Positions 4,116 through 25,428 of a stretch of 33,570 bases of DNA are shown here, in pieces. This DNA is from an uncultured Anaerolineae bacterium (GTDB lineage: Bacteria > Chloroflexota > Anaerolineae > JAAYZQ01): positions 1 through 33,570 of the forward strand of contig CBDUWJ010000002.1 of assembly GCA_965370895.1 (NCBI GenBank). Direction: 5' to 3'. Numbering within the stretch: the first letter of the stretch is position 1; the number at the start of each line of letters is the position of its first letter. The translations under genes and the position numbers were made by a program. The notes beneath the pieces were generated by a model. It worked only from the letters and a program-made list of their open reading frames with translations. It was not told the DNA's origin and searched no databases.

Positions 4116-4870
4116 TGCACGTCGCAGGCCTCGACATCGGTTCGCGGACCATCGCCCTGGTCGAGTGGGATGGCTCCCAGATCATGCGCGCAGTCGTGGT
4201 CGACACCGGCACGGACCCCTTGGGCAACGCCCGGGCATTGCTCGCGGGCAGCGCGTTCGACCGCCTGGTAGCCACAGGCTATGGCCGCAATCTTGCCGCC
4301 GAGCGCGAATTGGCCGGCGAGGTGATCTCCGAGATCAAGGCCTACGGCCTGGGTGCGTTCCACCTCTACTCCGATGTCGGCACCGTGCTGGATATCGGCG
4401 GCCAGGACAGCAAGGTCATCCGCATCGGGTCCGACGGGCGCGTGCTCCGGTTTGAGATGAACGATCGCTGCGCGGCCGGCACGGGCCGCTTTCTTGAGAA
4501 CATGGCCTGTACCCTAGGAATGGGGGTAGCAGAGTTTGGCCCCCATGCCCTCGCAGCAGACGGCCGGGCTGTGCGTATCTCCAGCATGTGCACCGTCTTT
4601 GCCGAGTCGGAGGTGGTGTCCCTCATCGCCCGTGGCGAGAATAGCCAACGCGTCGCTCTGGGACTGCACCAAGCCATCGTGGACCGGGTGGGGGGCATGG
4701 TCCGCCGTGTCGGCGTGCGAGAACGTTTTGTTTTTGCCGGCGGCGTGGCGCACAACCCCTGCCTGCAACGGCTCTTTTCCGAGGCGCTGGAAGTGCCCGT
4801 AACCGTGCCCGACGCCCCGCAGATGGTAGGCGCCTTGGGTGCGGCGCTGCATGCTGCGCGGGACGGATGA
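4115..4870 (+). CDS. BcrAD/BadFG/HgdC-family ATPase (activase of 2-hydroxyacyl-CoA dehydratase / benzoyl-CoA reductase type)
   Basis: The sequence shows an acetate/sugar-kinase-like fold signature: MHVAGLDIGSRTIALV, LDIGGQDSKVI and FAGGVAHNP. The two cluster-bridging Cys contexts typical of this family are also present, NDRCAAGTGRFLE and SSMCTVFAESEV. Confidence 0.88.
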   Translation: MHVAGLDIGSRTIALVEWDGSQIMRAVVVDTGTDPLGNARALLAGSAFDRLVATGYGRNLAAERELAGEVISEIKAYGLGAFHLYSDVGTVLDIGGQDSKVIRIGSDGRVLRFEMNDRCAAGTGRFLENMACTLGMGVAEFGPHALAADGRAVRISSMCTVFAESEVVSLIARGENSQRVALGLHQAIVDRVGGMVRRVGVRERFVFAGGVAHNPCLQRLFSEALEVPVTVPDAPQMVGALGAALHAARDG

Positions 4871-4873
4871 CTG

Positions 4874-5509
4874 ATGACGGATGACGACCGGCGAATGACA
4901 AACCACGGATCACGAATCACGGATCACGAATCACAAAGCGCGCCCCACGGCTTCAAGAAGCGCTTTTACACCCCGCGCGCCTTTGCTCACGACTTGGGTG
5001 ACATCCTGTCCCATATGCCCGAGTTTAGGGACACCGCTCGCAGCGGGCGGGTGAGCAGGTCCTTTGCGGAAAAGATCATGATGGCCGTGACCCAGGTCAA
5101 CGGTTGCCGCTACTGTGCCTACTTTCACACCAAGTTGGCCCTGAGGGAGGGCGTGCCGCCAGATGAGATTGAGAGGTTGCTTGGCCAGGAGATGGGTGAT
5201 TTCCCTGAGGAGGAGGCGGTGGCGCTGGCCTTTGCCCAGCACTGGGCCGAGACGGCCGGCCATCCCGACCCCGAAGCCGAAAGCCGCTTCCGTGCCTATT
5301 ACGGTCCCCAGCTCAGCGCCGACGTTCTCAACTGGATGCGAATGATCAACTTTGGCAACCTGGCGGGCAATACCGTCGATGCCTTTCTCAGCCGGTTGCG
5401 GGGCGCCCCGGCCAAAGGCAGCAACCCACTTGGCGAGTTCCTGATCTTTCTCCTCTGCGCTCCGCTTACGCTGCCGTTGCTGGCCCGGATACGGCGAGCG
5501 CAAGCCTGA
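4874..5509 (+). CDS. Carboxymuconolactone decarboxylase (AhpD-like) family protein
   Basis: The CxxC core VTQVNGCRYCAYFHTKLALREGV is typical of the CMD/AhpD family. A hydrophobic C-terminal segment FLIFLLCAPLTLPLLA is present. An alternative in-frame ATG lies at 4895. Confidence 0.8.
   Translation: MTDDDRRMTNHGSRITDHESQSAPHGFKKRFYTPRAFAHDLGDILSHMPEFRDTARSGRVSRSFAEKIMMAVTQVNGCRYCAYFHTKLALREGVPPDEIERLLGQEMGDFPEEEAVALAFAQHWAETAGHPDPEAESRFRAYYGPQLSADVLNWMRMINFGNLAGNTVDAFLSRLRGAPAKGSNPLGEFLIFLLCAPLTLPLLARIRRAQA
4904..4931. repeat. Perfect 14-nt tandem duplication (CACGGATCACGAAT x2, followed by CAC)
   Basis: Read directly from the sequence: 4904-4917 is identical to 4918-4931. The repeat lies in the first 20 codons of the CMD-family ORF. 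Confidence 0.9.
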
Positions 5510-12309: not shown

Positions 12310-13059
12310 ATGCGAGAGATACTCTACGGCCGCCAGCCAGTTCGCGAGACGTTGCGGGCCGGCCGGCGGCAGGTGTTCAAGCTGCTGCTGGCCAGAGGGG
12401 TCAAGACCACGGGGATCGTGGGCGAGATCCTCAATCTGGCACAACGTGCAGGCGTACCGGTCCAGATGGTAGACCGGCAAGATCTGTACAAACTGGGTGG
12501 CGAGGTCCATCACCAGGGCCTCGCCGCCGAGGTTGCTGGCTACCCCTACGCGGACCTGGTTGGTCTGCTGGATGCCGCCGAACGGGCTGATGAATCGCCT
12601 TTCCTGTTGCTACTGGATCACATGCAGGACCCTCAGAATCTGGGCTCCCTGCTGCGCAGTGCCGAGGCGGTTGGCGTGCATGGCGTCGTGATCCCCCAGC
12701 GCCGGGCCGCCGGAGTGACGCCGGCGGCGGTTCGTGCCTCGGCCGGCGCAGCAGAGCACGTCCGCGTTGCGCAAGTGACCAACTTGGTGCGGAACATGCA
12801 GACGTTGAAAGCCGGTGGTGTGTGGCTTGTGGGGTTGGAGGCGCTGCCCAGCGCGCAGCTCTACACCCAGGCGGATCTGAGAGGCGCCCTGGGACTCGTC
12901 GTCGGCGGCGAAGGCCATGGGCTCGCGCGCCTGGTTCGGGAAACCTGCGACTTTCTCATCCGGTTGCCAATGTCCGGCCATGTAGCGTCTCTGAACGCAG
13001 GCGTGGCGGGGGCCATCGCCCTGTACGAAGTCCTCCGCCAGAGAACAATGTCCGATTAG
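12310..13059 (+). CDS. rlmB: TrmH/SpoU-family 23S rRNA (guanosine-2'-O)-methyltransferase, RlmB-like
   Basis: The SpoU motifs are LLLLDHMQDPQNLGSLLRSAEAVGVHGVV, LVVGGEGHGL and IPMSGHVASLNAGVAGAIALYE. The position immediately after cysS matches the arrangement seen in Firmicutes. Confidence 0.82.
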   Translation: MREILYGRQPVRETLRAGRRQVFKLLLARGVKTTGIVGEILNLAQRAGVPVQMVDRQDLYKLGGEVHHQGLAAEVAGYPYADLVGLLDAAERADESPFLLLLDHMQDPQNLGSLLRSAEAVGVHGVVIPQRRAAGVTPAAVRASAGAAEHVRVAQVTNLVRNMQTLKAGGVWLVGLEALPSAQLYTQADLRGALGLVVGGEGHGLARLVRETCDFLIRLPMSGHVASLNAGVAGAIALYEVLRQRTMSD

Positions 13060-13108
13060 GCGTCCATGTGGCAGGATCGCCGACCGAGCCCACCCGCACG
13101 CTGTTGGG

Positions 13109-13141
13109 GAAAGAGAAAAGCCTCTCTGGGTAGAGAGGCTT
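13109..13141 (-). terminator. Rho-independent terminator downstream of tRNA-Tyr, possibly also acting on rlmB from the other side
   Basis: The 9-bp stem is AAGCCTCTC (13118-13126) paired with GAGAGGCTT (13133-13141), with a 6-nt loop. On the minus strand it is followed by TTCTCTTTC. Confidence 0.6.
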
Positions 13142-13142
13142 C

Positions 13143-13227
13143 TGGTGGGCAGGGAAGGATTTGAACCTCCGAAGGCTGAGCCAGCGATTTTACAGACCGC
13201 CCCCTTTGGCCACTTGGGTACCTGCCC
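13143..13227 (-). tRNA. tRNA-Tyr (anticodon GTA), 85 nt, CCA encoded
   Basis: The reverse complement reads GGGCAGG TA CCCAAGTGGCCAAAGGG G GCGGT CTGTAAA ATCGC TGGCTCAGCCTTCGGAG GTTCAAATCCTTC CCTGCCC A CCA. This gives a 7-bp acceptor stem, an anticodon loop CT-GTA-AA and a long variable arm. The layout is almost position-for-position that of E. coli tyrT. Confidence 0.93.
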
Positions 13228-13256
13228 ATATTGCAGCGTAACACTGGCCAGGCCCT

Positions 13257-13284
13257 ATTATATCCATCCCGGGCGAAATGTCAA
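13257..13284 (-). promoter_or_regulatory. Consensus sigma-70 promoter for tRNA-Tyr
   Basis: The reverse strand reads TTGACA (13284-13279), then 16 nt, then TATAAT (13262-13257). Both hexamers are perfect. The TGA stop of the radical SAM gene (13283-13281) lies inside the -35 hexamer. The -10 hexamer ends about 30 nt upstream of the mature tRNA 5' end. Confidence 0.6.
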
Positions 13285-14744
13285 TCTTCAGCGTGGGCTT
13301 TGCGCCCCAGGAAGAACCGCCCAAAGTTGCTGGCATATTCCGGCAGGTGGCGCCACGTGTCGGGACTGATCGCCTTGCGCCAGACGCGGCCGGGCCGCAG
13401 GTAAAAGCGCCGGTAGGCCTCGTGCCACTTGCGTTCCACCAACTCTGCCGGCAGCGAGGGCAGCTCGTAGCGGGGCTTTTCATCGTGGATGGCATAGTCG
13501 CGCCAGTCCATGCTGAACAGCCGGCCGTCTCGCTGTGCGATCTCCCACAGCTCGGTGCCCGGATAGGGCGCGGCGATCATAAAGTTCGCCAGATCGGGGT
13601 CCAGTTCCAACGCGAACCGTATGGTGTCCTCCATCGTGTCTTCCGTGTCGGCCGGCAGGCCAAAGATGAAAAACCCCATCGTCTGGAGCCCGGCGGCCTT
13701 GGCTTCCTTGAATGCGCGGCGCGAGTCGTCCAGCGTCTGCCGTTTCTTGATGGCATCCAACACGGCCTGGTTGCCACTCTCCACGCCAAAGCCAACCCGC
13801 TTGCAGCCGGCCCTCTTCATCAACTGGAAAAGCTCGGCGTCGGAATGGTCGACGCGCATGCCGTGAACCGTGATCCATGGCACCTGGGTCAATCCTTCGT
13901 TGATGAGCAGGCGGCATATCGCCTTTGCCCGCTCCAGATTCAGGTTCCACACGTCGTCGGTGATGCCGATCTCGGTGGCGCCCATCTCCTGCACCAGGTA
14001 GCGCCACTCAGCCACCACATCCTCCGGCGAGCGGTCGCGCCAGGTGTTGCCCGTGATCGGCTTGGAGCAATAGATGCACTGGTAGGGACAGCCCCGGCTC
14101 GTGACCAGCGTGTAGGACCGGGCGTTGGGGTCCAGCCCGTCGGTGATCGGCTGCAGGTTGGTGTAGCGATCGATCTTGAAAAGATGATATGCTGGCCAGG
14201 GGATGCCCTCAAGGTCCTTGGGCAAGGGCCGAGGGGCGTTGTGCACGACGCGTCCGGCCGTGTTTCGCCAACTCGAACCCAAGATCGGTTCAAGGTTGCA
14301 GGCTGCAAGTAGCAAGTTGGGATCGTTCCGCCCCTCGTCCTTTGCTGCTTGTTGCTGTCGTTCGATCTCCTGCACGATTTCGACGAGGGTTTCCTCCGCC
14401 TCGCCGCGCACCACCAGGTCCACCTCGGATCGTTCCATCGACTCGTCGGGCATGAGGGTCAGGTGCGGGCCTCCGAGGATGGTGATCGCCCCCTGCTCTT
14501 TTGCCAGGGCTGCCGCCTCCCATGCCTCGTAGATGAGAGGCGTTGGGCTGGAGATGCCTACAACGTCGTAGCGCTCCTGTGCCAGGTGCGAAGCCAAAGG
14601 CTGGTCCTCGATCTCGGCGTCGAACAGTGTCACGTTGTCATAGCCGGCAGCAATCAACGCCCCAGCCAGGTAGCCCAAGCCCATGTGGATGTGCGTCCGC
14701 GAACTCCACACGGTCGATTTGGGACTGACTAACAGAATCCTCAT
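13281..14744 (-). CDS. B12-binding-domain radical SAM protein (class B)
   Basis: The ATG at 14744 follows GGAG. The N-terminal B12-binding-like domain is MRILLVSPKS...GLGYLAGALIAAGYDNVTLFDAEI. The radical SAM motif is TSRGCPYQCIYCSKP (CxxxCxxC). The 29 codons upstream in the ORF track are not needed. Confidence 0.85.
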   Translation of the reverse strand: MRILLVSPKSTVWSSRTHIHMGLGYLAGALIAAGYDNVTLFDAEIEDQPLASHLAQERYDVVGISSPTPLIYEAWEAAALAKEQGAITILGGPHLTLMPDESMERSEVDLVVRGEAEETLVEIVQEIERQQQAAKDEGRNDPNLLLAACNLEPILGSSWRNTAGRVVHNAPRPLPKDLEGIPWPAYHLFKIDRYTNLQPITDGLDPNARSYTLVTSRGCPYQCIYCSKPITGNTWRDRSPEDVVAEWRYLVQEMGATEIGITDDVWNLNLERAKAICRLLINEGLTQVPWITVHGMRVDHSDAELFQLMKRAGCKRVGFGVESGNQAVLDAIKKRQTLDDSRRAFKEAKAAGLQTMGFFIFGLPADTEDTMEDTIRFALELDPDLANFMIAAPYPGTELWEIAQRDGRLFSMDWRDYAIHDEKPRYELPSLPAELVERKWHEAYRRFYLRPGRVWRKAISPDTWRHLPEYASNFGRFFLGRKAHAED

Positions 14745-15007
14745 TCCAACTCCACACCAGCATTCCGCACTTTGGAAGAGCTTTTGTGCGTTCTCCGTCT
14801 TCCATTCTACCATAGAACCTTTCCACCGCAAACCCCACCGCTACGGCTTGCATGGCTTGAGATGGGATGCAATCTTTAGACAGTCTATGGCCCCAGGTCG
14901 AAGTTTGATTCTGACCGCTCTGTTTCTGTCATCACAGGCAATTGACGGCACCCCTACTGTCTGTCCTGCACAGAGGAGTACCGTGCCTTGGCGCTCGCAA
15001 CGGACCG

Positions 15008-15046
15008 AACAAACCCATACCAACGCCGGCCTGGGCCTGGTATGGG
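15008..15046 (-). terminator. Rho-independent terminator after the 12-TM gene
   Basis: On the minus strand the sequence is CCCATACCA, then a 15-nt loop, then TGGTATGGG (9-bp stem), followed by TTTGTT. It starts 16 nt after the TGA at 15063-15065. Confidence 0.6.
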
Positions 15047-15062
15047 CGACAACACGGTGCGT

Positions 15063-16469
15063 TCAGGTCTCCTGGCTCACCGTCTTGGTCAGACACACGG
15101 CGACAAAGAGGGCCAAGGCCAATAGGCTCATGGCGATACCCGTCTCGAAGAGGGGCATGGTCCAGGCCTTTTCCTGACCCGGCTGGCGGAACATGAAGAG
15201 ATTTACAAAGACAAAGGACAGCGTTGATCCCACCAGCAGGCCCCAGCCAACGACCTGGCGCACCCAGCCCCGCGCCCCCAGCCGATGGGCGATGAGAAAG
15301 GTGACGATGACGGCCGACAGGGTGGCCAAAATGTGCCAGTGCCCCACCAGGATCGTCCGCTCCACCGCCAGGTAAGCTGGCGAGCGGTACGTCTCCATGT
15401 TCAGGGCGACGTAGACGCCCGGGACGGTGACCACGAAATTCACAAAGATCAATTCGAAAAAGATGCCAAAGCGGATGGGGTCGGCGAACAAAGCTCGCAG
15501 CCTCTGGCCCAGGCTAGCCGGTCCGTTTCCCAGTCGCTCACGAATCAGCCTGGTGAACCCCCAAATGGCCACAAGGATGGCGCCAGGGAGCAAAAAGGCC
15601 GAACCGATGTTGATGACCTTGTGCGCTCCTTCCCAACCGATGACTGACCAGGTGGCAAAGGTCACGACGATGGTGCCCACGATGATAAGGGGAACGGCGA
15701 TCTTGTGCACCCGGCCTTCGACACGGAATGTACGGATGACCAACAGCAGGATCATCACGTCGATTAGCGTCAGCATGATGTGCAAGTGGGCGATGATCAT
15801 CAGTTGGAACAGGGTGTGGGGATCCTGCCGGACTATGTCCTCGGCCAGAAAGGCCACAAGGCCATTGCCGAAAAAAGCCCCTGCCGCCCCGCCGATGGTC
15901 GCCGAGATGAGGGTAAAGACTGCCACCAGGAAAAAGGCCACCGGTTCCAGCGGCACGCCTCCCAGGTATGCGTAGCGGGTAGGGTTAGTAGCCCAGCGCC
16001 GCGAGGGATACAGGGCGATCGCCAGCAGGACGCCGGCGTAAAAAACCAACGATAGGCCGACCAGGTAGACGCCATGGGCGATCCAGTTACGCCCCCCGTA
16101 GGCAAAGGTCATTCCCCCCAGGCTGGTAAGCATGTAGCCAGCGGTGATGGGCACCACGATGGAGCGGCGTACGTCCTTCTCCTTCTCTGGAGGTCCCATG
16201 GGCACCTGGTCGAGGACGAGGTAAACCAGGGCAGCAACAAAGGGAATGGCCAGCGAGTGGTAGAGCATGATGATGCGACCTGCGCGATGAACATCGCTCA
16301 AGTCCACGCTGAGCAGCTCAGCCAAGCCTAGCCCCCGCACCGGCCCGGAGAAAAGCGACAGGCTGCCCACGATTAGGGCATCCCAGGCCACGACCAGGAT
16401 GAGCAGCCCAGGCAGAGAACCAAACAGGCGCTGGATAACACGTTTGACGACGTTGGATGATCGTTGCAT
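15063..16469 (-). CDS. 12-TM histidine-motif membrane protein, possibly a divergent heme-copper oxidase/NOR superfamily subunit I-like protein
   Basis: The protein is 468 aa with about 12 predicted hydrophobic helices, and GAGG lies 6 nt upstream of the ATG. Histidines sit in TM2 (MLYHSLAIPF, H71) and TM6 (IIAHLHIMLTL, H228/H230). Further histidines sit before TM8 (EGAHKVINIG, H283) and in TM10 (VGHWHILATLSAVI, H377/H379). The order, spacing and local sequence resemble COX1 motifs recalled from memory (TAHAFVMIFF, GHPEVY, WAHHMFTVG, AHFHYVLSMGAVF). Confidence 0.55.
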   Translation of the reverse strand: MQRSSNVVKRVIQRLFGSLPGLLILVVAWDALIVGSLSLFSGPVRGLGLAELLSVDLSDVHRAGRIIMLYHSLAIPFVAALVYLVLDQVPMGPPEKEKDVRRSIVVPITAGYMLTSLGGMTFAYGGRNWIAHGVYLVGLSLVFYAGVLLAIALYPSRRWATNPTRYAYLGGVPLEPVAFFLVAVFTLISATIGGAAGAFFGNGLVAFLAEDIVRQDPHTLFQLMIIAHLHIMLTLIDVMILLLVIRTFRVEGRVHKIAVPLIIVGTIVVTFATWSVIGWEGAHKVINIGSAFLLPGAILVAIWGFTRLIRERLGNGPASLGQRLRALFADPIRFGIFFELIFVNFVVTVPGVYVALNMETYRSPAYLAVERTILVGHWHILATLSAVIVTFLIAHRLGARGWVRQVVGWGLLVGSTLSFVFVNLFMFRQPGQEKAWTMPLFETGIAMSLLALALFVAVCLTKTVSQET

Positions 16470-16753
16470 CTTTGCCTCGGTACGCAGTTACAGTAGAGCG
16501 AATCTCGCTTTGCCAGGAACGGCCTAGCCGAGCTGGACTCGGGCCCGGCGACCAAGGGTTGAGCCAAGCGCGCGCTGGCCCAATCCCCTCATAGCTTTCC
16601 CAGGTCCGCCGGGTCTCGCACGTCCACACTCAAGGGGCGCATTATACCCCATGCCGGCTGCCCAGGACAAATGTCAATTGGCCGAGCGCCCGGCCGGTGC
16701 GGTGTTGCCCATCGGGTTTCTGGATGGCAGTGTCTACGGCCTTGTGGGTAACC

Positions 16754-19057
16754 TCACCGGCTGGCCTCGTGCCTCCGCCACAGTACGATGACCATCAGGA
16801 CAAGAAGGATCAGCAGGGTCAGCGCGCTGATCCCAAGGCCGGCATACCAAGACACCGGCTGAAAGGTCATGGTCACCTGGTGCACACCGGCCGGAACCGC
16901 CACGGAGCGGAAGGCGTAATTGGCCCGCAGGATCGGCGCCGGTTTGCCATCCAGTTCGGCCCGCCAGCCGGGGTAGAATGGATCGCTGAGGAACAGGTAG
17001 CCCTCAGCCGGGCTGTCGATCTCTATCTCCAATGCGTCCGGTTCGTAGCGCACAACTTGCACCACGGCTTGTCCCCTGGCCTCGACGTCCAGCGGCCGGC
17101 CACCCTCCAGGACTACCGTGGCGGCGGGGTCGAATCCAGGTTCGTGGATGTGCGCCCAGGCATCCTCGTGATCGGCGGCCACGATCGCCCGGTGAGCCAC
17201 AAAGGCGCGTGGCAGAGACGTCTCGTTGAGGTAGACGTTCACCGCGGGGTCGGCGTCAAAGGCCAGGCTGAACTTGTCCCAATCCAGCGTGACCTCTTTG
17301 CTGCCCAGCACGTAGCGCACCCCCAACAGATCGTAGAGCCGCGTCGAACGCCCACCGGTGCCCTCCCAGTAGCGGGCAACATCGGCAATGACAAGGGGGT
17401 TGTCCACGCCGCTCACATCGTACAGGCCAGCCAGCAAAGCCAGGTCGGGCTGCCAGTCGCCCCACACATCAGTTCGCGAGTCGATGCGGAACATGTCAGG
17501 CTCGCTGTCGAAAAAGTCCACAATCAATGGGTGCTCAAAGCCAGCCGTGGGGGCTTTGTTGCCCAGGTCGGTATAGGCTCCCACCGTTGCCAGATCCAGG
17601 AAGACTAACCCGACCGCCAGCCAGGCCAGCACGCTGCGCCGTGGGTGTCCCGCTCGGCGGGCACTGAGCCAGGCCAGGCTTGCTCCCAATATCAGCAGGG
17701 CAAATATCACTCCACTGCCCGCCGCCGACACCCGCCAGAACACGGTTGGATCGCCGTCCTGCGCCTGGTAGATCACCAGGTAGGCCCACGCTCCGCCGAT
17801 GATGACTGCGGCCCCTCCAAACCAGATCAGCCCGCGCCATACTTTCTGGAAGGCCCCGCGCGTCTGGCGGTCCATCGGCCTGAGTAGATGATCCAGGCCC
17901 ATGGCTGCCAGGCCGGCCAGGGCAAAGTCAAGGAGCAGGACTGCGCGTGCCGGGGCACGCAGTTGCCCGAATCCAGGCAGCAGCCAGTACGCCCAACCGT
18001 GAACCACAGATGACCCGCCCAGAGCCAGCAGAAAGGCGACGACGGCCAGGATGACGAACATGCGGATCCGCCGTCCGCGCCATAACAGGACTGCCAGGGC
18101 GGCCAGGATCAGCGGGAAGATACCCACATAGCCAACCGCTACCCGGTCCCAGACGCCCCAATAGAGGGCAGGCTCTCGGCTGCTGAACAGGGCTGGCACC
18201 AGCATCTCGCCCAGCAGCCCGGGGACCAGGGAATATCGGGCGGCGCTTTCATATGGTAGCGTGGCGCGGGGGCTCAGACGGGCGTACTCCACAGCGGGCA
18301 GCAGCACCAGCGCCGAGAGGCCGATGGCCACGGCAGCGGTGACGGCCAATGCCAGGAACGACCACGCCCAGCCGCGTCGCTCTCTGTGGGCGGCGATGGC
18401 TTCCGCAACCGCGGCCACGGCAAGGGCCAGGCCGATGAACAGCGTGATCTGCAGGTGGCCCTCCAGCGTGGCGAGGCCAAAGGCGACGCCGGCTCCTACG
18501 GCCAGGCCCAGACTCCGGGCCCGCAGCGCCCGCCAGAAGAGTAGAAATACCAGCGGCAGCCAGGCAGCCACACCGATGAGGTTAAGGTTGCCAAAATGGA
18601 CGATGAACATGTCGCAGAACATGTAGGCAATAGCGCCGGTGAGGGCAGCCGGGACCCGCATAGGACGGCCGGGTTCCAGGTAGCGCAGGCAGAGGTACAT
18701 GAATAGCCCAGCCAGAAAGACGTGCAGGACGGCCATCCACACCATCGCCCTGTAGGCAAAATCAGGCGCCAGCAGGAAGAGGAGCAGGTTGGGCGGGTAG
18801 AACAACCCCGTCTGCATGTCGGCCAAAAAGGGCGCACCGCTGTAGAGATGGGGGTTCCACAAAGGCAGATCCCCAGCCCGTAGACTGGCTGCTGCAAAAC
18901 GATAGGTGGGAAAGAGGAAGGAGACCAGATCGCCACCGCCGGCTGGTTTCCACGCGTCTGGGGTGAAGAGGATGCGCCAGAAGAAGCCGAGCGTTACCAG
19001 CAAGAGGACAGCAGGCGCCAAGAGCTCGCGGATGAGGGACTGACGGTTATGGGTCAT
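16754..19057 (-). CDS. YfhO-family polytopic membrane protein (GT-C-type glycosyltransferase)
   Basis: The N-terminal signature is FFWRILFTPDAWKPAGGGDLVSFLFPTYRFAAASLRAGDLPLWNPHLYSGAPFLADMQTGLFYPPNLL. More than 10 TM helices follow. There is a large extracytoplasmic C-terminal domain and a final TM anchor (GISALTLLILLVLMVIVLW). AGGAGAGGAAAG lies upstream of the ATG. Confidence 0.78.
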   Translation of the reverse strand: MTHNRQSLIRELLAPAVLLLVTLGFFWRILFTPDAWKPAGGGDLVSFLFPTYRFAAASLRAGDLPLWNPHLYSGAPFLADMQTGLFYPPNLLLFLLAPDFAYRAMVWMAVLHVFLAGLFMYLCLRYLEPGRPMRVPAALTGAIAYMFCDMFIVHFGNLNLIGVAAWLPLVFLLFWRALRARSLGLAVGAGVAFGLATLEGHLQITLFIGLALAVAAVAEAIAAHRERRGWAWSFLALAVTAAVAIGLSALVLLPAVEYARLSPRATLPYESAARYSLVPGLLGEMLVPALFSSREPALYWGVWDRVAVGYVGIFPLILAALAVLLWRGRRIRMFVILAVVAFLLALGGSSVVHGWAYWLLPGFGQLRAPARAVLLLDFALAGLAAMGLDHLLRPMDRQTRGAFQKVWRGLIWFGGAAVIIGGAWAYLVIYQAQDGDPTVFWRVSAAGSGVIFALLILGASLAWLSARRAGHPRRSVLAWLAVGLVFLDLATVGAYTDLGNKAPTAGFEHPLIVDFFDSEPDMFRIDSRTDVWGDWQPDLALLAGLYDVSGVDNPLVIADVARYWEGTGGRSTRLYDLLGVRYVLGSKEVTLDWDKFSLAFDADPAVNVYLNETSLPRAFVAHRAIVAADHEDAWAHIHEPGFDPAATVVLEGGRPLDVEARGQAVVQVVRYEPDALEIEIDSPAEGYLFLSDPFYPGWRAELDGKPAPILRANYAFRSVAVPAGVHQVTMTFQPVSWYAGLGISALTLLILLVLMVIVLWRRHEASR

Positions 19058-19082
19058 AGCTTTCCTCTCCTACTTCCAACTT

Positions 19083-21230
19083 TTAATCTCCGAGTTCTAT
19101 CGTCCCCAGCAGGATGGCATCGTCGGGCAGGGGATTTCCGGCAGCGTCAGAGGCAGGAAGTCGCGCCAGTGTCGCCAGGAGATACAGGCCGGCCTCGATC
19201 TGATAATTGCCGGGCGGAGCGTCAGCCGGTACGGTGAGCACGTGCACATCAAGGATGACCTGGCCGGGCTGCCATGTGGTAGTTGGGTAGTGGCCGCCGT
19301 CCGGTTGGCCGTCGTGCCCGGCCCAAAGTGGACCATCCATCGACGGGTTGTGCTCGCCGAGCAGGTGCGTAAACACCGTGTAGCTATCGTCCAGCGGAGC
19401 GAGGGCCTGCCAGTGAAGGGTCAGGTTGACGCTGTCCCCCGGCGCGATCCGGTCGGCGTCCAGCGAATAGCCCAGCAGCCGGACAACGCTGCCAAACACG
19501 GCATCGACAGGATGATCGGGCACCGGGGCGGCCGTGCGGCCCTCGGCCGTGGCGGGCAAGTGGTAGGCAGCAGCATAAAGGCGGCCATAATCATCGGTCA
19601 GGGTCCAGATTACCTTGCCATCGGGACGCGTCCGCTGAAGTGCAGGTAGCGTGGCTGCGTCCTCGCGGACAAGTGCAACGACGGTCGCCGCCTGGCCTGG
19701 CGGGGGAAAGACCAGCCCCGCCCGCCCGTCAAAGGTGGCAAGGGGACGGTGGACCAGGAACTGCAAGGTAAAGTGCTCGCCCGTGGTGGGTGTCAGGTAG
19801 ACGTCCTCACCGGTGGGTAAGGTATTGACATAATCTGCGACCTCGGTCAGACCCACGTCGTAGGCATAGAACAGGTCCGGGCTTTGGCTCCAGGTCAGGA
19901 AATAGGCTCGCGCGCTCGAGACTCCGGAAAAGGTCAATCCCACCGCCAGCAAGACGGTGACGCAGACCTGACAGGTTTTCCGGAGCCTTTCAGGTCTCAG
20001 GCTGGTGGCACCCTGCCACAAAGTCCATCCGCCCAGGGCGCCAAGAAGGGCCAGGGCCGGTGTGGCGCCGATGGCCCGGCCAAAGTGGGGTGCATGCTCG
20101 GTGACGAGGGTCGGCAGGATCATTACCCCCAGCCAGATCAGTGGCAACGCTGATCTCGGCCGGCCGCGCAGCGACCCGAGCAACGCCTGCCCAAGGCCGA
20201 CCATAAAGAGGAGGGCCAGAAAGGGGTCCAGAGCTGGACGGCCGGGCAGGTTGCTGCGTGGATTGGCATCACCCTGCAAGAAAAACATCCCCAGCACTCG
20301 GGGAAGGTTGTCCCCCACCGCCTGCCAGGGGCTCGCTGGTGAGCTCGCGCCACCTACCAAGGCCACACTGGCAGGTCGCTGCAGGAAGTTGTCCGGATGG
20401 GTGACAAAAAAGACGACGATGGGCGCGGCGACCAACACGGCTACCACGGTTGTCAGAAGTAGCCCCCGTCCATGGCGGCGGAGGAATCCGCGCTCGACGA
20501 CGGCGGCGTATGCGACGAATAGGACCGCCACGACGGGCACGAAATAGCCGGCTTTGTAGGTGTATGTACTTCCGCCCAAGGCCAGTCCAGCCAGGACGAA
20601 GGCAGGCCAGCCACCGGAATTCAGCCCTCGAGCCAGGGCGGCGAGGCTCAAAGTCGCGAAAAAGGGTACCAGGATCGGTTCCATGCCGATGCGGCTGAAG
20701 CTAAGGTGCCAATACAGTATGGCCAGTATCAGGGCAGTACCGAGGCCCATTATCTGTCCTCGGAGACTCATCTGATCCTCCGCCTTGCTCCTGCGGGGGC
20801 GCCCGTTCGGTGCTTCTGATGGTGTCCTACGCTGGCGTGGGCGGCCCCAGTGGGAGGTTCGAAAGAGTTCGCGACCCAGCCACCAGGCCAGGGGTATCGT
20901 CAGCGTGCCGACAATGGCCGATGGCAATCGCACAATCCACGGCTCCGGTCCCACCAAACCGAGCGCCGCGGCCACCAGGTAGATGCCCAGGGGTTCCTCG
21001 CCCATATCGCTCTCAAAGAAAAGCCGGAGAGGAGCGCCTTCGAGCAGCGCCCGGGCCGTGATGCCTTTGAACCCCTCGTCAAAGTGGAGGCCGGGTGGCA
21101 ATGACGGCAAACGATGAAAGCGGAGGGTGGCAGCGAGCAGGGTGATCAACAGGATAGCCCCCACCTCCAGGGAAGTTTCCCAGGACTTCCAGGGCCTCAC
21201 GGACGTTGGACGTCTATGGCCTTTGCTCAT
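19083..21230 (-). CDS. Glycosyltransferase family 39 (PMT/ArnT-like, GT-C) with a C-terminal beta-rich domain; paralog A
   Basis: The loop-1 motif is LRFHRLPSLPPGLHFDEGFKG, followed by RLPSAIVGTLTIPLAWWLGREL and many TM helices. The C-terminal domain VRLLGYSLDADRIAPGDSVNLTLHWQALAPLDDSYTVFTHLLG...PGNYQIEAGLYLL is shared with the upstream paralog. The start overlaps the stop of the upstream gene (ATGA at 21227-21230). Confidence 0.85.
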   Translation of the reverse strand: MSKGHRRPTSVRPWKSWETSLEVGAILLITLLAATLRFHRLPSLPPGLHFDEGFKGITARALLEGAPLRLFFESDMGEEPLGIYLVAAALGLVGPEPWIVRLPSAIVGTLTIPLAWWLGRELFRTSHWGRPRQRRTPSEAPNGRPRRSKAEDQMSLRGQIMGLGTALILAILYWHLSFSRIGMEPILVPFFATLSLAALARGLNSGGWPAFVLAGLALGGSTYTYKAGYFVPVVAVLFVAYAAVVERGFLRRHGRGLLLTTVVAVLVAAPIVVFFVTHPDNFLQRPASVALVGGASSPASPWQAVGDNLPRVLGMFFLQGDANPRSNLPGRPALDPFLALLFMVGLGQALLGSLRGRPRSALPLIWLGVMILPTLVTEHAPHFGRAIGATPALALLGALGGWTLWQGATSLRPERLRKTCQVCVTVLLAVGLTFSGVSSARAYFLTWSQSPDLFYAYDVGLTEVADYVNTLPTGEDVYLTPTTGEHFTLQFLVHRPLATFDGRAGLVFPPPGQAATVVALVREDAATLPALQRTRPDGKVIWTLTDDYGRLYAAAYHLPATAEGRTAAPVPDHPVDAVFGSVVRLLGYSLDADRIAPGDSVNLTLHWQALAPLDDSYTVFTHLLGEHNPSMDGPLWAGHDGQPDGGHYPTTTWQPGQVILDVHVLTVPADAPPGNYQIEAGLYLLATLARLPASDAAGNPLPDDAILLGTIELGD

Positions 21231-23173
21231 TCGACCACCACCTCGATGGTACCCAGCAATACCCGGTCCCCAAGGGGCTCGCCTGTATCGGGAACACGGA
21301 CTGGCAAGCGCTCAAGGGTGTCCAGCAAGTACATTCCCACTTCGAGGGTGTGGCGTCCAGGCGTGGCGCCGGTGGCAACGGTCAGGGCATAGTTGTCCTG
21401 GATGACCTGGCCGGCGGTCCAGCTATCAGTGGGCAGAGCGCCGCCCTGAGGCTCGCTGTCCATCTGCGCCTGGACCTGCTCGCCGGCGTCCAGTAGGTGG
21501 GTAAAGACGGTGTAGCGTTCGGTGATGGGGGCCAAGGCCTGCCAATAGAGCGTAAGGAGAAGTGTGCCGCCGGGAGCCACCTGGCTGGCGCTCAGGGCAT
21601 AGCCCAGAAGCCGCACCTGACCTCCCAGTTCGGCATGCAGCGGATGCTGAATGGTGTCGCCAGCCGCGGCGGGCGTCATCACGTATAGCGAGAGATCAGA
21701 ATCCACCCAGCCGCCAAAGTAGGCCTTGCTACCGTGAGTCGCCAACCAGCGGGAAAGATAGCCGTCGGGGTCGTATTCCGCCGGATTGCCAAACCGGACG
21801 AGCCACAGGCGGGGGTGCCGGGCGGCGATGTCGGCCAGGTCACGGGCTGTGTTGGGATCCTCCAACGCATACTCGTAGCGTGGGAACAAGTGCGCCTCCA
21901 GCCCCTCCGGCTGGTAGTACTCAAAGATCGGACCCTGGAGTTGGTTGGCCAGGATGAGGCCATCGCCAGGCTGCGCATTGGCCTGAATGTAGGCCATCAT
22001 CTGGCCGTACTGGCCCTTGAGGTTAGCGTCATCGGTATAGTAACTGCACAGCCCGAACCAGCTCCCGGCCAGCAAGGCAACCGCGCCCACGGCGCTCAGA
22101 GGCCGCCACAGGTGACTCCAGGCAGTCACGCCCCAGGCTGCCACGATGTAAAATGCGGGAGCGATGAGAAGCAGGTAGCGGGCATAAAAAAAGGGCATGA
22201 TAGGGTTGACCGCCCAGGCGAGAAGAAGGGGGAGGAAGAGATAGGCCACGACAAGCCATGGCTCTGGCCGGCGGCGGTGGAACGATGCCAACAGACCAGA
22301 GACGACGGCGATCAGGAAAAGGATTGTGATCACCCCAGCAGCGACGGGTGGAACTGCCTGGCCAGCCCCAAAGGCGGCAAAGGTTTCCCGGGCGATATGG
22401 GAGGCGATGGACAACCCCCACTCGTCGAATCGTGTGCTGGCCTTGCCGCCGAGAAACTCGCTCTGGACGGCGATCCAGGGGAGATATGCCAGCACAATGG
22501 CTCCCTGCACGGCCAGCCAGAGGGCCAAAGCGGATCGGGGTCGTAAGGCAGAACGTCGCCTGTGGAACAGAACGGAGATGATGACGAGGTTCTCGGCCAG
22601 GATGACAAAGATGGCATAGTAGTGGGTATAGATAGCGGCGAGAGTCGTGACGAAATAGGCCAGCCATGCTCCGCGAGACCGTGGCTGCTGGAACGCGCGT
22701 ATGGCCCAATAGACCGAAGCAGCGGCCAACAGGGTGACCAGGCCGTACATGCGGGTCTCCTGCGCGTAATAGATCAAGACCGGCGAAGCAGCGACCAAGA
22801 GGGCAGCCAGCATGCCGCCTCCCCAGGCTGCCCCCCGCCTGCGGGGCGGACTGAGGGGGGGAAAAGCGCGATTACCCAGGACGTAGGCGACCGGTACAGT
22901 CAGGGTCCCGATCAGGGCTGAAAGAAAGCGTGTGGCCAGGGGCGACGATCCAGCCAGGCGCAGCCAGAGGTAGAGCAGAAACGGGTAGAGGGGTGGGTGG
23001 GTGTCGGCCCCACCGGCGACGACCTGGGGCAGGGGTTGGCTGCTGAGCCAGATACTGAACGCCTCATCGCCCCAGATGTCCTGACGATCGATGGCGTAGC
23101 ACCGCAGACCAAAGGCCAACAGGACAATGAACAACACACCAAGATGGAACCGCCGAGCGAGCGCCCCAGTCAT
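21227..23173 (-). CDS. Glycosyltransferase family 39 (PMT/ArnT-like, GT-C) with a C-terminal beta-rich domain; paralog B
   Basis: The N-terminal signature is LRCYAIDRQDIWGDEAFSIWLS...DTHPPLYPFLLYLWLRLAGSSPLATRFLSALIGTLTVPVAY (DE motif plus hPPLY...R). The C-terminal domain is VRLLGYALSASQVAPGGTLLLTLYWQALAPITERYTVFTHLL...PGRHTLEVGMYLL. Confidence 0.85.
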   Translation of the reverse strand: MTGALARRFHLGVLFIVLLAFGLRCYAIDRQDIWGDEAFSIWLSSQPLPQVVAGGADTHPPLYPFLLYLWLRLAGSSPLATRFLSALIGTLTVPVAYVLGNRAFPPLSPPRRRGAAWGGGMLAALLVAASPVLIYYAQETRMYGLVTLLAAASVYWAIRAFQQPRSRGAWLAYFVTTLAAIYTHYYAIFVILAENLVIISVLFHRRRSALRPRSALALWLAVQGAIVLAYLPWIAVQSEFLGGKASTRFDEWGLSIASHIARETFAAFGAGQAVPPVAAGVITILFLIAVVSGLLASFHRRRPEPWLVVAYLFLPLLLAWAVNPIMPFFYARYLLLIAPAFYIVAAWGVTAWSHLWRPLSAVGAVALLAGSWFGLCSYYTDDANLKGQYGQMMAYIQANAQPGDGLILANQLQGPIFEYYQPEGLEAHLFPRYEYALEDPNTARDLADIAARHPRLWLVRFGNPAEYDPDGYLSRWLATHGSKAYFGGWVDSDLSLYVMTPAAAGDTIQHPLHAELGGQVRLLGYALSASQVAPGGTLLLTLYWQALAPITERYTVFTHLLDAGEQVQAQMDSEPQGGALPTDSWTAGQVIQDNYALTVATGATPGRHTLEVGMYLLDTLERLPVRVPDTGEPLGDRVLLGTIEVVVE

Positions 23174-23179
23174 GGCAGC

Positions 23180-23208
23180 AGTCTAGCATAACCCCAGTGT
23201 TTTGGCAA
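23180..23208 (-). promoter_or_regulatory. Candidate promoter for the GT39-GT39-YfhO operon, possibly producing a leaderless mRNA
   Basis: The reverse strand reads TTGCCA (23208-23203), then 17 nt, then TAGACT (23185-23180), with an extended -10 TGC. The A of the ATG at 23173 is the 7th nt after the -10 hexamer. No Shine-Dalgarno sequence is present upstream. Confidence 0.35.
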
Positions 23209-23221
23209 CCTCTTCCTAGCG

Positions 23222-23268
23222 CGCCAACAGAACAGTCCCTGCTCCGGCCGCGGCCGGAGCAGGGACTG
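23222..23268 (-). terminator. Perfect 36-nt palindrome acting as a Rho-independent terminator after the GH/proline-rich bicistron
   Basis: CAGTCCCTGCTCCGGCCG/CGGCCGGAGCAGGGACTG (23233-23268) has 18-nt perfectly complementary arms. On the minus strand it is followed by TTCTGTT. It starts 21 nt after the TAG at 23289-23291. Confidence 0.65.
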
Positions 23269-23288
23269 CCAGGTCCCAATGTGGCCCG

Positions 23289-24431
23289 CTACCCGATTCG
23301 CTCTTCCAGGAGGGCAATGACCGTATCAAGCTTCTCAAAGAGCTGCCGCCAGAGCTCCTCGTGTGGTGAGGGTGGTGGCGGCGGTGGTGGTGGCGGTGGA
23401 GGGGGCTCGCCGCCAGGCATAAACCCGAGCGTAACATCCAGGTGGCGGGGGGTGCCCAACACTCGCCCCAGCCCGATTACTGCATCGCTGTTCCCCGCGG
23501 ATCCCTTCACGAGGGCCAGGTATGGCCCTCGGCCGGGTACGGGATACTTGGAATCGGTCTCCAGCGGGAAACGCGCCGCGCCATCAGCGCCGGTTTCCAG
23601 GGCATGACCTGCCGTTCCATCCCAGCGTCGGAAGGACACAGGGATGCCCTCCAGTGGATTCCCTTGCTCATCCAGGACCGTGATCTTACATTCGTGGATG
23701 TCCACGACCTCACGGAGTTCGGCCAAGCGGTAAGCGTCAGGTTCAGGAGATGCATGATGCTCCACTGTCCCGAAGAGATGCTCCAGCCAGGCCACGTCTC
23801 GCGGTTGACCATCTTTGTCAATGATGTCAAAGCCTGGGGAGGGAGGAGGTGGCGGCGGTGGGGGTGGTGGTGACGGCGGCGGTGGCGGCGGTGGAGGTGA
23901 CGGCGGTGGTGGTGGTGACGGCTCCTCCAACTCTTCCAGCCGATAGGCAACGTCCAGGTGGCGGTGGTTGGTGGCCCCCAACATGCCCAACCCGCTCAAA
24001 AAGTCGGCTGGGCCTGACTCATCAGCCACCCACACGGCACTGGCCCCCACGTTGGGGGGAAAGTAGTAGTCGCCATGCCCCATGCCAAAGCCGATGTCAC
24101 CTTCTGCCTTGGTCTCGCCGTACACTCCCCTGTCGCGCCACATGCTGGTGGGCGCTGGCCACGATGGTAGCTGGGGTGCATCTGGCCAATGGCGGACGAC
24201 CTTGATCCCTTGGAGGGGATTGGCATCTTGGTCCGCCACCTGCACAACCTGGGCCGCTGGCCCTTCGCTGTCTTGCAGTGCTACGATGCGGTATACGCGA
24301 CTTACCCCTTCAGGAGCATCAGCCCGCTCCAGGGTGATGGCCCCAAAGTTGGCGACGAGCCAATCCCAATCCTGTTCTTGTCCCTGCTGATCAAAGATCT
24401 TGGGCTTATCCACTGGTGTCCTCTCTTTCAT
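23289..24431 (-). CDS. Two-module beta-sandwich (CarboxypepD_reg-like) protein with polyproline linkers and a C-terminal amphipathic helix tag; function unknown
   Basis: The start is assigned to the ATG at 24431 (MKERTPVDKPKIF), 19 nt after the upstream stop. The longer track ORF would overlap the upstream gene. Module 1 contains DWDWLVANFGAI...VQVADQDANPLQGIKV...GLGMLGATNHRHLDVAYRL. Module 2 contains DVAWLEHLFGTV...ITVLDEQGNPLEGIPV...GLGRVLGTPRHLDVTLGF. The first linker is PSPPPPPSPPPPPPPPSPPPPPPPPPPSP (23835-23921). The second linker is P12-SP (23364-23405). The tail is EELWRQLFEKLDTVIALLEERIG. No signal peptide is present. Confidence 0.7.
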   Translation of the reverse strand: MKERTPVDKPKIFDQQGQEQDWDWLVANFGAITLERADAPEGVSRVYRIVALQDSEGPAAQVVQVADQDANPLQGIKVVRHWPDAPQLPSWPAPTSMWRDRGVYGETKAEGDIGFGMGHGDYYFPPNVGASAVWVADESGPADFLSGLGMLGATNHRHLDVAYRLEELEEPSPPPPPSPPPPPPPPSPPPPPPPPPPSPGFDIIDKDGQPRDVAWLEHLFGTVEHHASPEPDAYRLAELREVVDIHECKITVLDEQGNPLEGIPVSFRRWDGTAGHALETGADGAARFPLETDSKYPVPGRGPYLALVKGSAGNSDAVIGLGRVLGTPRHLDVTLGFMPGGEPPPPPPPPPPPPSPHEELWRQLFEKLDTVIALLEERIG

Positions 24432-24450
24432 CCCAGGCGGCAGGTACCAC

Positions 24451-25428
24451 CTAGAGCCTCTCACGTGCCAGGACGACGATCCGATCCACGCGCTCCAGGA
24501 CCTCAGCCCACAGGGCGTCTTCGTCAGGAGGTGGAGACGGACACGGTTCTTGCAGGCGATACACAGGGGTGGCCTGTTGGGCCAAGGCCCCGGCCAAATC
24601 GGGCCAGATGTCATAGCTCTTCCATTGCCAATCAGTCGTGCTGCAGCAGTAGATGGCTGCCCCCGCGACATAAGGGTCTTTCAGTAGCTCGGCATCGTAC
24701 CAGGCCAACTGCTGGAGATACCGCTGAGCGTCTCCTTCATGAAGGACCCTCCAACCACGCGGTGGATGTCCTCGCTCAATGAGGCCGTCAAGTCCGCATT
24801 CCGTGATGAGCAGCGGTAGGGCTTTCAGGTTCTCGGGTAGTCCCTCCCAGTTGTGCTCTGGCTCGCCGTCGTACACCTTGCGGTGGCGGAGCAGGTGCCA
24901 TGGCCACTTGTGATCCAGGGAGGGCCAGGCATATTCGTGAAGGGCCAGCGCGCCGCCGTATTGAAGGGCAGTTTCCAATGCCGGCAAAAAGTCCTGCCAG
25001 TAGACCAATTCCGGATTGCCCACCGAAAAGCTGCCCACAACCACGCTGCAACCGTGGCTGTCCATGATCCGTACCCGCTCCGCCTCAAAGTCGGCGTAGC
25101 GCGCCATGGCCTGAGAAGAGTCAATAGTCGGCTCGTTGACGCCTTGCCAGTAACTGTAGGTTTCGCCCATGCGCTCGGCCCAAGGCAAGATCTTGTCGCA
25201 GTGATCCTGAGCAGCCACCAAAGGGTCGAGGGTTGGGTTGTTAAAGTCAGGCTCGAACTCCTGGAAAACGCGTCCCACAAACGTGGTCTTGGGCGATGCG
25301 GCTTTGACGTGATGCCACACCTCGCTGTGATCGAGAATCACGACAACGGGTGGCTCCCACTCCTGGATGGCCTCGGGCAGCCCTCCGACTGTCGTGTTCA
25401 CGTGAGCCCCCAATAGACTGTAACCCAT
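24451..25428 (-). CDS. Clan GH-A (GH5-like) TIM-barrel glycoside hydrolase with a C-terminal Pro spacer plus amphipathic helix tag
   Basis: AAGGAGG lies 9 nt upstream of the ATG. The acid/base motif is WQGVNEP (E99). An HxY motif is present in LALHEY. The nucleophile motif is LLITECG (E210, 111 residues after E99). The tail is PSPPPDEDALWAEVLERVDRIVVLARERL. No signal peptide or TM helix is present. Confidence 0.72.
   Translation of the reverse strand: MGYSLLGAHVNTTVGGLPEAIQEWEPPVVVILDHSEVWHHVKAASPKTTFVGRVFQEFEPDFNNPTLDPLVAAQDHCDKILPWAERMGETYSYWQGVNEPTIDSSQAMARYADFEAERVRIMDSHGCSVVVGSFSVGNPELVYWQDFLPALETALQYGGALALHEYAWPSLDHKWPWHLLRHRKVYDGEPEHNWEGLPENLKALPLLITECGLDGLIERGHPPRGWRVLHEGDAQRYLQQLAWYDAELLKDPYVAGAAIYCCSTTDWQWKSYDIWPDLAGALAQQATPVYRLQEPCPSPPPDEDALWAEVLERVDRIVVLARERL

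Follow-up and report, generated by a model that had tools for sequence, protein, structure and literature searches.

An uncultured Anaerolineae bacterium (Chloroflexota) encodes, on contig CBDUWJ010000002.1 of GenBank assembly GCA_965370895.1, a membrane protein that represents a new, deeply divergent oxidase-fold family rather than a member of the heme-copper oxidase (HCO) superfamily as currently defined. The window, by which we mean the whole stretch of DNA analysed, comprises positions 1 to 33,570 of this contig, and the gene occupies 15063..16469 on the minus strand; it begins with ATG and specifies a protein of 468 amino acids (aa) with 12 transmembrane (TM) helices. On balance we lean towards the view that this is a di-heme protein with a reduced distal metal site, which probably takes electrons from quinol to reduce O2, NO or a comparable oxidant. 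A two-heme, oxidase-like redox protein is the best-supported reading because a predicted subunit I fold, an HxH motif in TM10, a layer of histidines near the outer membrane face, and a heme O synthase dedicated to relatives of the gene all agree; to our knowledge, heme O is known as a cofactor only from heme-copper oxidoreductases. The gene had been singled out in a preliminary description of the window, and the open reading frame (ORF), motifs and codon coordinates quoted there were all exact when the sequence was read again.

Predicted fold and conserved histidines

Two AlphaFold2 models of the protein were generated, model 1 from 40 close homologs (pLDDT 75) and model 2 from 34 diverse sequences (pLDDT 92.9, pTM 0.92). 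Both models contain 12 long TM helices, and the high-confidence model has a short charged N-terminal helix in addition, in accord with the approximately 12 hydrophobic helices counted previously. When model 1 was compared with the PDB using Foldseek, ranks 1–11 were all occupied by subunit I of HCOs (mitochondrial and bacterial COX1, Thermus thermophilus ba3, cbb3 CcoN, and NorB of the nitric oxide reductase (NOR) cNOR), with TM-scores of 0.36–0.54 and a best E-value of 9.4e-4. Model 2 retrieved ba3 at ranks 1–12, cNOR at rank 13, and then COX1 and qNOR, with TM-scores of 0.37–0.50 and probabilities of at least 0.94. Matches to other proteins (G-protein-coupled receptors, MATE transporters, flippases, pyrophosphatases and complex I) have TM-scores that do not exceed 0.28 with model 1 or 0.23 with model 2, and the heme A synthase CtaA of Bacillus subtilis (6a2j) appears at rank 39 with model 1 (TM-score 0.22–0.28, probability 0.41) and not among the top 50 with model 2. 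The comparison to COX1 and NorB structures that the preliminary description had proposed thus gave top matches exclusively to HCO subunit I from both models. As modelled, the protein has the twelve-TM core fold of HCO and NOR subunit I; the match lies at the border of significance, and its specificity is clear.

Conservation was analysed in 121 members of the subfamily that includes the protein (subfamily 1), 119 members of a sister group (subfamily 2), and 26 distant representatives. Seven of the eleven histidines (H71, H132, H228, H230, H283, H377 and H379) are 99–100% conserved in both subfamilies, and many glycines are strictly conserved alongside them across approximately 40% identity. 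H71, H228, H377 and H379 are each conserved in 96% of the distant representatives, H230 in 85% and H132 in 81%; four very distant members have neither H230 nor H283. Six of the seven had been listed previously and withstood the conservation test suggested at the time, being 100% conserved across the 121 and 119 members, although the seventh, H132, had been overlooked. The corresponding codons, all on the minus strand, are at 16257..16259 for H71 in TM2, 16074..16076 for H132 at the outer end of TM4, 15780..15788 for the H228-L-H230 motif in TM6 (H228 15786–15788, H230 15780–15782), 15618..15623 for H283-K284 at the TM7/TM8 junction (H283 15621–15623, K284 15618–15620), and 15333..15341 for the H377-W-H379 motif in TM10 (H377 15339–15341, H379 15333–15335).

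The arrangement of these residues in the membrane is ordered. Loops on the N-terminal side hold 12 Lys and Arg residues and those on the opposite side hold 6, indicating an N-in topology. All seven conserved histidines then lie on even-numbered helices and 3–15 residues from the outer face (the distance to the outer end of the helix is 12 residues for H71 in TM2 and three for H132 in TM4), and the four non-conserved histidines are scattered. In the bovine and bacterial HCO structures, the cofactor ligands likewise form a single layer near the outer membrane face.

A profile of 43 family sequences was aligned using hhalign to a profile of nine HCO subunit I sequences, consisting of E. coli CyoB, QoxB, four CtaD proteins, a divergent Variovorax enzyme, and FixN and NorB of S. 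meliloti; QoxB, the CtaD proteins and the Variovorax enzyme came from annotated plasmids and the S. meliloti sequences from pSymA DNA, and the set spans A-type, cbb3 and cNOR enzymes. The local alignment extends over 360 collinear columns with P = 5.7e-4, and the global alignment over 426 columns with P = 4.3e-6. Reversed profiles gave P values of 0.3–0.5, and six unrelated membrane proteins, including an MFS protein, gave local P values of at least 0.046 and global P values of at least 0.38. The best of twenty block-shuffled decoys scored 19.0 globally and 29.2 locally, compared to 32.4 and 39.8 for the real profiles, and circular permutations recovered just the portion that was still collinear. 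No signal was seen between the family and single HCO sequences.

Five positions that hold cofactor ligands in CyoB are matched in this alignment: H228 pairs with H284, the CuB ligand of helix VI, H283 and K284 pair with the CuB ligands H333 and H334, and H377 and H379 pair with H419 and H421, the high-spin and low-spin heme ligands. Within TM6, H230 further corresponds to E286, the D-channel Glu, and M232 to Y288, the cross-linked Tyr. In ungapped register scans the expected register came first for TM10 (z = 4.35), where alone the sequence signal is clear, joint first for TM7/8, and second for TM6. For TM2, the register that places His on His ranks fifth (z = 1.9), and the best register aligns a ‘PF’ motif 6 residues away. 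H71 is nonetheless a candidate for the helix II ligand, the first axial ligand of the low-spin heme, as judged from its position and invariance. Of the heme ligands previously regarded as retained, H377 and H379 therefore align with the CyoB pair, but the register of the TM2 histidine is ambiguous.

The active site differs from that of known HCOs. The HxH of helix X by which HCOs are recognized is present as H377-W-H379 and is predicted to ligate heme. Of the three histidines expected to bind CuB or FeB, two positions are occupied by H228 and H283, and the third is occupied by K284, which is Lys in 84% of subfamily 1 (with Arg as the remainder among close homologs), Thr in 46% of subfamily 2, and variable in distant members. 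Because it is not conserved, we regard K284 as the loss of a ligand rather than the acquisition of a new one; the replacement of a CuB His by Lys that had been proposed is correct in that K284 aligns with CyoB H334, but it is very unlikely that this Lys is a metal ligand. The placing of H283 in helix VII has also to be revised, as the residue belongs to the first turn of TM8, directly beyond TM7. The cross-linked Tyr of the A, B and C oxygen reductases is missing, as had been noted, and M232 holds its place in the alignment; the family has no invariant Tyr besides Y70, which adjoins H71.

Distribution and gene neighbourhoods of the family

The family is undescribed and comprises thousands of sequence clusters, nearly all of whose named members are from Anaerolineae or other Chloroflexota. 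A word-indexed search identified at least 716 relatives of the protein (clusters at 90% identity); the best 120 are 73–99% identical to it, all are from metagenome bins of Anaerolineae or other Chloroflexota, all are named ‘hypothetical protein’, and none has a Pfam domain. Subfamily 2 is a larger paralogous group from Anaerolineae, approximately 40% identical to the protein and with more than 3,189 clusters at 90% identity; both cluster counts are lower bounds, and the family is accordingly abundant. None of the 240 listed homologs of the two subfamilies has a precomputed Pfam domain, and a few database entries name subfamily 2 members ‘MFS family permease’. A profile search of 1.84 billion representatives gave only 215 matches, and the family is thus narrow in sequence space. 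The profile of NnrS (PF05940), a 12-TM heme- and copper-containing NO-response protein, does not match the protein at E ≤ 10, and we found no description of the family in the literature on HCO-like, divergent or Anaerolineae oxidase families.

Some of the distant members have features of their own. One (P0157, identical to P0288) is 24% identical to the protein and carries an annotation that assigns it to a Promethearchaeota (Asgard) bin; the other named members are from Chloroflexota. Two others, P0185 (777 aa) and P0242 (858 aa), carry C-terminal ‘WSPDGS’-type repeats resembling a TolB/PD40 beta-propeller, and both are without H230 and H283.

In subfamily 2, for which we analysed 80 metagenome loci (L051–L130), the gene has two regular companions. 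A gene with an FGE-sulfatase fold lies 3′ of the homolog in 70–76 of the 80 loci, often with overlapping stop and start codons, and a heme o synthase gene follows approximately 1 kb 3′ in 57–63, which is essentially all of those with sufficient downstream DNA. The heme o synthase scores 219.2 bits on TIGR01473, above the cutoff for that model. Crp/Fnr-type regulators are encoded upstream, and COX1 is present in just one of the 80 loci. In 39 of them a conserved membrane protein of approximately 229 aa with one conserved His and no family match (for example L055:7227-7916 (+)) is encoded just before the homolog, its gene ending exactly at the start of the subfamily 2 gene; it may be a further subunit.

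The constant partner in subfamily 2 is thus the FGE-like protein rather than an electron-entry subunit. It has a lipoprotein signal with the lipobox LAGC (for example L055:9506-10402 (+)), and in the distant member P0128 the membrane domain is naturally fused, through an additional TM helix, to a C-terminal FGE-like domain of approximately 300 aa; the signal and the fusion suggest that lipoprotein and membrane protein work together on the outer face. True FGEs have a catalytic Cys pair in the motif RGGS-x-x-C-x-x-x-x-C. This pair is absent from the subfamily 2 partner, and catalytic FGE activity was rejected as a candidate function.

Gene neighbourhoods of subfamily 1 were compared in 41 loci from species-representative genomes, all Chloroflexota, with neighbours called from greedy non-overlapping ORFs and by tblastn of named neighbours. 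In the clade that includes the window, a B12-binding radical SAM gene lies 3′ of the gene; this arrangement is found in 8 of the 41 loci, which also share the SpoU, CysS, CMK gene order, and it is missing from the two closest relatives, L002 and L011. This neighbour had been offered as context for the gene, but it is kept in one shallow clade only, together with general synteny; the adjacency looks like inherited synteny, and a functional radical SAM link as a feature of the family was rejected on these grounds. A second arrangement, also in 8 of the 41 loci, places a UbiA-family gene 15–600 nucleotides (nt) 3′, often with a peroxiredoxin gene next to it. By a wide margin, the best NCBIfam match of the UbiA-family protein is heme o synthase TIGR01473, at 210.0 bits with a cutoff of 210.3.

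A third arrangement runs in the order NDH-2-like gene, 140-aa ORF similar to CoxB, genuine COX1, sometimes an AhpC-like gene, the family member, and genes for a DUF438-hemerythrin-PAS protein and a DUF166 protein, sometimes with a flavodiiron protein nearby. COX1 (PF00115, E = 1.6e-65) is within 3 kb 5′ of the gene in 7 loci, the smallest gap being 13 nt. These COX1 proteins are atypical, with an invariant WFWWGLDMVADGN replacing GHPEVY, such that helix VI has Asp residues and no His, while WSHH and HxH are kept; the 140-aa ORF preceding them has weak similarity to CoxB. In sequence, a COX1 with WFWWGLDMVADGN fits the published description of gNOR. We found it directly 5′ of the family member at L035:4735-6363 (+) and L019:3968-5608 and in L020, L021, L030, L034, L040 and L017. 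The pair of genes for the DUF438-hemerythrin-PAS protein (L035:8877-10157) and the DUF166, DfsP-like protein (L035:10182-10931) recurs 3′ of the gene in approximately ten other subfamily 1 loci, and some subfamily 1 loci have a separate hemerythrin and a flavorubredoxin-like flavodiiron protein near the gene.

In the window itself the gene is solitary, and ‘orphan monocistronic’, as it had been called, is accurate there although not for its relatives, in which it is operon-linked with genes for heme O synthase, an FGE-like lipoprotein or a gNOR-like oxidase. Gaps of 284 nt upstream, to a YfhO-type gene, and 231 nt downstream separate it from its neighbours. A promoter-like TTGTCC-18 nt-TATAAT (16641..16670, minus strand; 10 of 12 positions in a consensus scan, and a consensus match only) lies in the upstream gap, and a GAGG at 16475..16478 (minus strand), 6–9 nt 5′ of the ATG, is a candidate ribosome-binding site. 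RNA folding of 14832–15075 revealed a terminator-like hairpin, CCCAUACCAGGCC...GGCGUUGGUAUGGG followed by UUUGUU, 16 nt past the stop codon (15007..15047, minus strand); its stem is bulged, and a simple terminator scan overlooked it for this reason. The gene's own putative terminator and upstream region of about 280 nt, as first described, are thus both borne out. An Rfam search of 12900–17000 reported tRNA-Tyr alone, with no riboswitch in the 284-nt leader and nothing in either gap.

The downstream neighbour is the B12-binding radical SAM gene at 13281..14831 on the minus strand (PF02310 and PF04055), and a tRNA-Tyr (GTA) gene at 13143–13227 (minus strand) separates it from a SpoU methyltransferase gene. 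The best NCBIfam matches of the radical SAM protein are BchE (194 bits where 481 is the cutoff) and HpnJ (190 bits where it is 578), both far short of the threshold; that it modifies tetrapyrroles is conceivable but unsupported. In agreement with the preliminary description, no subunit II, subunit III or NorC gene was found within the window, and neither an electron-entry subunit (CuA subunit II, NorC or CcoO) nor a fused quinol domain adjoins the gene, whose neighbours encode the B12 radical SAM and YfhO-type proteins.

Further upstream, 16754–24671 (minus strand) holds an envelope glycosylation cluster of four same-strand genes, coding for the YfhO-type protein (767 aa), two PMT_2-type membrane glycosyltransferases (715 and 648 aa) and a Big_1 domain protein; it is conserved in the closest relatives, L002 and L011. 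Elsewhere in the window, and all on the plus strand, are genes that mark an anaerobic way of life: an Fe-alcohol dehydrogenase gene beside an aldehyde:ferredoxin oxidoreductase gene at 27022–30229, those for a BcrA/BadF-type ATPase and a CMD-family protein at 4115–5509, and that for another radical SAM protein, which has a SPASM domain, at 31546–32541. The host looks anaerobic, as the window encodes the aldehyde:ferredoxin oxidoreductase, the BcrA/BadF-type ATPase and the Fe-alcohol dehydrogenase.

Proposed function and alternative explanations

If the protein is a two-heme, oxidase-like enzyme, it would bind both hemes in the outer third of the membrane, with the low-spin heme held by H71 of TM2 and H379 of TM10, and the high-spin heme ligated by H377 of TM10. 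The high-spin heme would probably be heme O, since relatives are operon-linked to heme O synthase. H228 of TM6 and H283 at the TM7/8 junction would face it at two of the three CuB/FeB ligand positions; because K284 is variable and the Tyr is absent, the distal site may be either a two-His metal site, possibly with the addition of H230 or H132, or a metal-free pocket. Electrons would most likely come from membrane quinol, the default donor given that no electron-entry subunit such as subunit II or NorC is present. The enzyme would then reduce O2, NO or peroxide to protect a host that is mostly anaerobic, probably without pumping protons. Scavenging of these oxidants rather than energy-conserving respiration is suggested by the anaerobic-looking host and by the neighbours of family members, which include gNOR-like, NDH-2, flavodiiron, hemerythrin, peroxiredoxin and Crp/Fnr genes. 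Heme binding, the type of heme, what H71 does, the source of electrons and the substrate are all what we infer from fold, conservation and linkage.

Several observations weigh against this interpretation. Pfam, including PF00115, and the NCBIfam oxidase and NOR models give no match to the protein at E ≤ 10, so that the PF00115/NOR profile check proposed at the outset came back empty even at this lenient threshold, and searches of PDB sequences with the single sequence and with a 40-sequence profile returned no oxidase. The Foldseek E-values are marginal (9.4e-4 to 0.2) and are not improved by the better model, and a TM-score of approximately 0.5 with a root-mean-square deviation of 8–12 Å is at the border of ‘same fold’. 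The alignment signal is fragile: adding eight gNOR-like sequences to the HCO profile causes the local signal to drop to P = 0.025, although the global P holds at 3.4e-5, and the family profile shows no signal with those eight neighbour sequences alone. The best hhalign alignment puts H71 6 residues off H106, the TM2 heme ligand of CyoB. Conservation extends to only two of the three positions that bind CuB or FeB, and with its distal site incomplete the protein may not be catalytic at all. Finally, the window itself has no heme or respiratory gene.

We also considered that the protein is a recent duplicate of its gNOR-like neighbour, but this is ruled out by the null alignment to those sequences and the weakened local score. 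Homology to the oxidases is suggested by fold-level evidence together with a weak profile signal. The original assignment to the HCO superfamily agrees with the fold and the collinear, albeit weak, profile alignment but not with the lack of any PF00115 or NOR profile match, and we withhold membership as the superfamily is defined because a PF00115 match and the three-His site are both wanting, although the fold and the helix X HxH are present.

The linkage to heme O synthase could be accounted for differently if the protein handles or modifies heme O, either as an unconventional counterpart of heme A synthase or as a chaperone or insertase fed by heme O synthase. This linkage is the tightest and most widespread that we observe and resembles the pairing of ctaA with ctaB, and there is nearly no oxidase in the vicinity of subfamily 2, with COX1 in one of the 80 loci. 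The invariant core of four helix-borne histidines recalls the four-His pattern of heme A synthase, and the BchE-like B12 radical SAM neighbour in the window's clade belongs to a family that includes tetrapyrrole-modifying enzymes. However, the fold is that of oxidase subunit I and not of CtaA (6a2j; TM-score 0.22–0.28, probability 0.41), there are 12 TM helices and not 8, the TM10 HxH is a specific signature of two-heme oxidases, and operons of the cyoABCDE type place heme O synthase beside a true oxidase too. We regard heme O handling as unlikely. A role as a non-catalytic, degenerate paralog that keeps the hemes or just the scaffold, and assists a real oxidase or NOR, for example a gNOR-like enzyme, in a structural or regulatory capacity, would explain the incomplete distal metal site and the seven loci in which a CoxB-like and COX1 pair lies within 3 kb 5′, with a gap as small as 13 nt. 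It is hard to reconcile with the strict conservation of seven histidines and many glycines across approximately 40% identity, with the dedicated FGE-like lipoprotein and heme O synthase partners, or with the absence of an oxidase near most loci (the window, the arrangement with heme O synthase, and nearly all of subfamily 2), and we consider it quite improbable.

A transporter or other 12-TM protein unrelated to the oxidases, with its likeness of fold arising by convergence or model bias and its histidines binding a substrate or metal ion, has similarly poor prospects. MFS, MATE and flippase structures have TM-scores of at most 0.23 compared to 0.40–0.55 for oxidases, the collinear profile alignment outscores all decoys including the MFS protein, the TM10 HxH register is specific (z = 4.35), and a linkage to heme O synthase is difficult to explain for a transporter; such a protein would nonetheless be consistent with the lack of a profile match to any oxidase model, the marginal Foldseek E-values and the few subfamily 2 entries labelled ‘MFS family permease’. 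Least probable of all is that Lys284 is a functional ligand replacing the CuB His and marking new binuclear-centre chemistry comparable to that of the proposed NO dismutases (NODs). Although K284 aligns with CyoB H334, and altered ligands do define gNOR and NOD (PMC11214002), a true ligand is expected to be conserved, and this position is Lys or Arg in close homologs, mostly Thr in subfamily 2, and nearly any residue in distant members; neither Arg nor Thr could substitute for a ligand.

A bolder version of the two-heme, oxidase-like reading is that the family branches as a deep sister to all of the HCO superfamily and is not a fast-evolving offshoot, and that it is a heme O di-heme enzyme with a two-His or metal-free distal site and an FGE-fold lipoprotein in place of the cupredoxin subunit. 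We think this doubtful but worth stating for its consequences. HCO evolution is debated, both as to whether O2 or NO reduction came first and as to the root of the tree, partly for lack of a known outgroup; positions of the root are discussed in PMC11214002. A sister lineage would provide the first usable outgroup for rooting the HCO tree and would reveal the role of the scaffold prior to the three-His CuB/FeB site and the His-Tyr cofactor.

Heme-copper oxidoreductases are responsible for nearly all aerobic respiration and for much of biological N2O production. The family described here is invisible to PF00115, and surveys of respiratory potential therefore never count its members, whose Anaerolineae hosts dominate anaerobic digesters and sediments. 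It combines a predicted subunit I fold and heme-ligand pattern with two of the three active-site histidines and no Tyr. Should its members bind heme and reduce O2, NO or peroxide, they would constitute a class of enzyme, new to organisms regarded as anaerobes, that scavenges oxidants, and nature would have provided a test of the contribution of the distal metal site. An FGE-fold lipoprotein, whose conserved pairing with the family is seen both in adjacent genes and in a fusion, would be a type of partner not previously associated with the subunit I scaffold. We expect the family to be of high interest to specialists in respiratory enzymes, with its cofactors and activity standing as predictions.

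Comparison with known oxidases and reductases

The closest systems are the B-family oxidases and NorB in fold, gNOR in logic, and cyoABCDE in operon layout. Subunit CbaA of T. thermophilus ba3 (3s8f_A) provides the best Foldseek matches of model 2 (ranks 1–12, TM-score 0.37–0.45); both proteins have 12 TM helices, the helix X HxH, a helix VI His and ligands near the outer face, and both are genetically linked to biosynthesis of a heme O/A-type cofactor. The protein described here is nevertheless shorter (468 aa compared to approximately 560 aa), has no detectable sequence similarity to CbaA, and is without the third CuB His, the cross-linked Tyr (M232 is in its place) and a cupredoxin subunit II. 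NorB of cNOR (3o0r_B; 449 aa) is among the structures with the highest TM-scores normalised on both chains (0.47–0.50) and also has no Tyr cross-link, and qNOR (8bgw_A) illustrates a subunit I scaffold that works on quinol without a separate electron-entry subunit. The NORs differ in that they keep three His and a Glu for FeB, use heme b, and match PF00115, whereas the third His is missing here and we found no alignable conserved Glu cluster.

CtaA/Cox15 (6a2j) is similarly located in the membrane, has conserved His pairs and binds heme O, and its gene is typically beside that for heme O synthase, but its 8 TM helices form a pair of four-helix bundles, its Foldseek TM-score is 0.22–0.28, and the protein has no Pfam or NCBIfam match to it. 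E. coli CyoB, the reference for the ligand positions above, is quinol-fed, has a high-spin heme O, and is encoded together with heme O synthase, as are relatives of the protein; CyoB is, however, larger (663 aa, 15 TM helices) and has a complete CuB site, the Tyr288 cross-link, the E286 proton channel and subunits II–IV.

The three CuB/FeB histidines, one in helix VI and two at the end of helix VII, are conserved in all HCO families but gNOR, the first family in which an active-site His is replaced, in this case by Asp (Murali et al. 2024, PMC11214002). A gNOR-like gene with GLDMVAD for GHPEVY lies directly 5′ of the family member in several Chloroflexota loci, and both proteins may be enzymes that reduce NO or O2 with quinol, which gNOR is thought to use. 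They differ in that gNOR has a strong PF00115 match (E = 1.6e-65 in the case of the neighbour) and a subunit II with the cupredoxin fold, neither of which is true of the protein described here, and in that the latter has lost another ligand, namely the second of the two histidines in helix VII.

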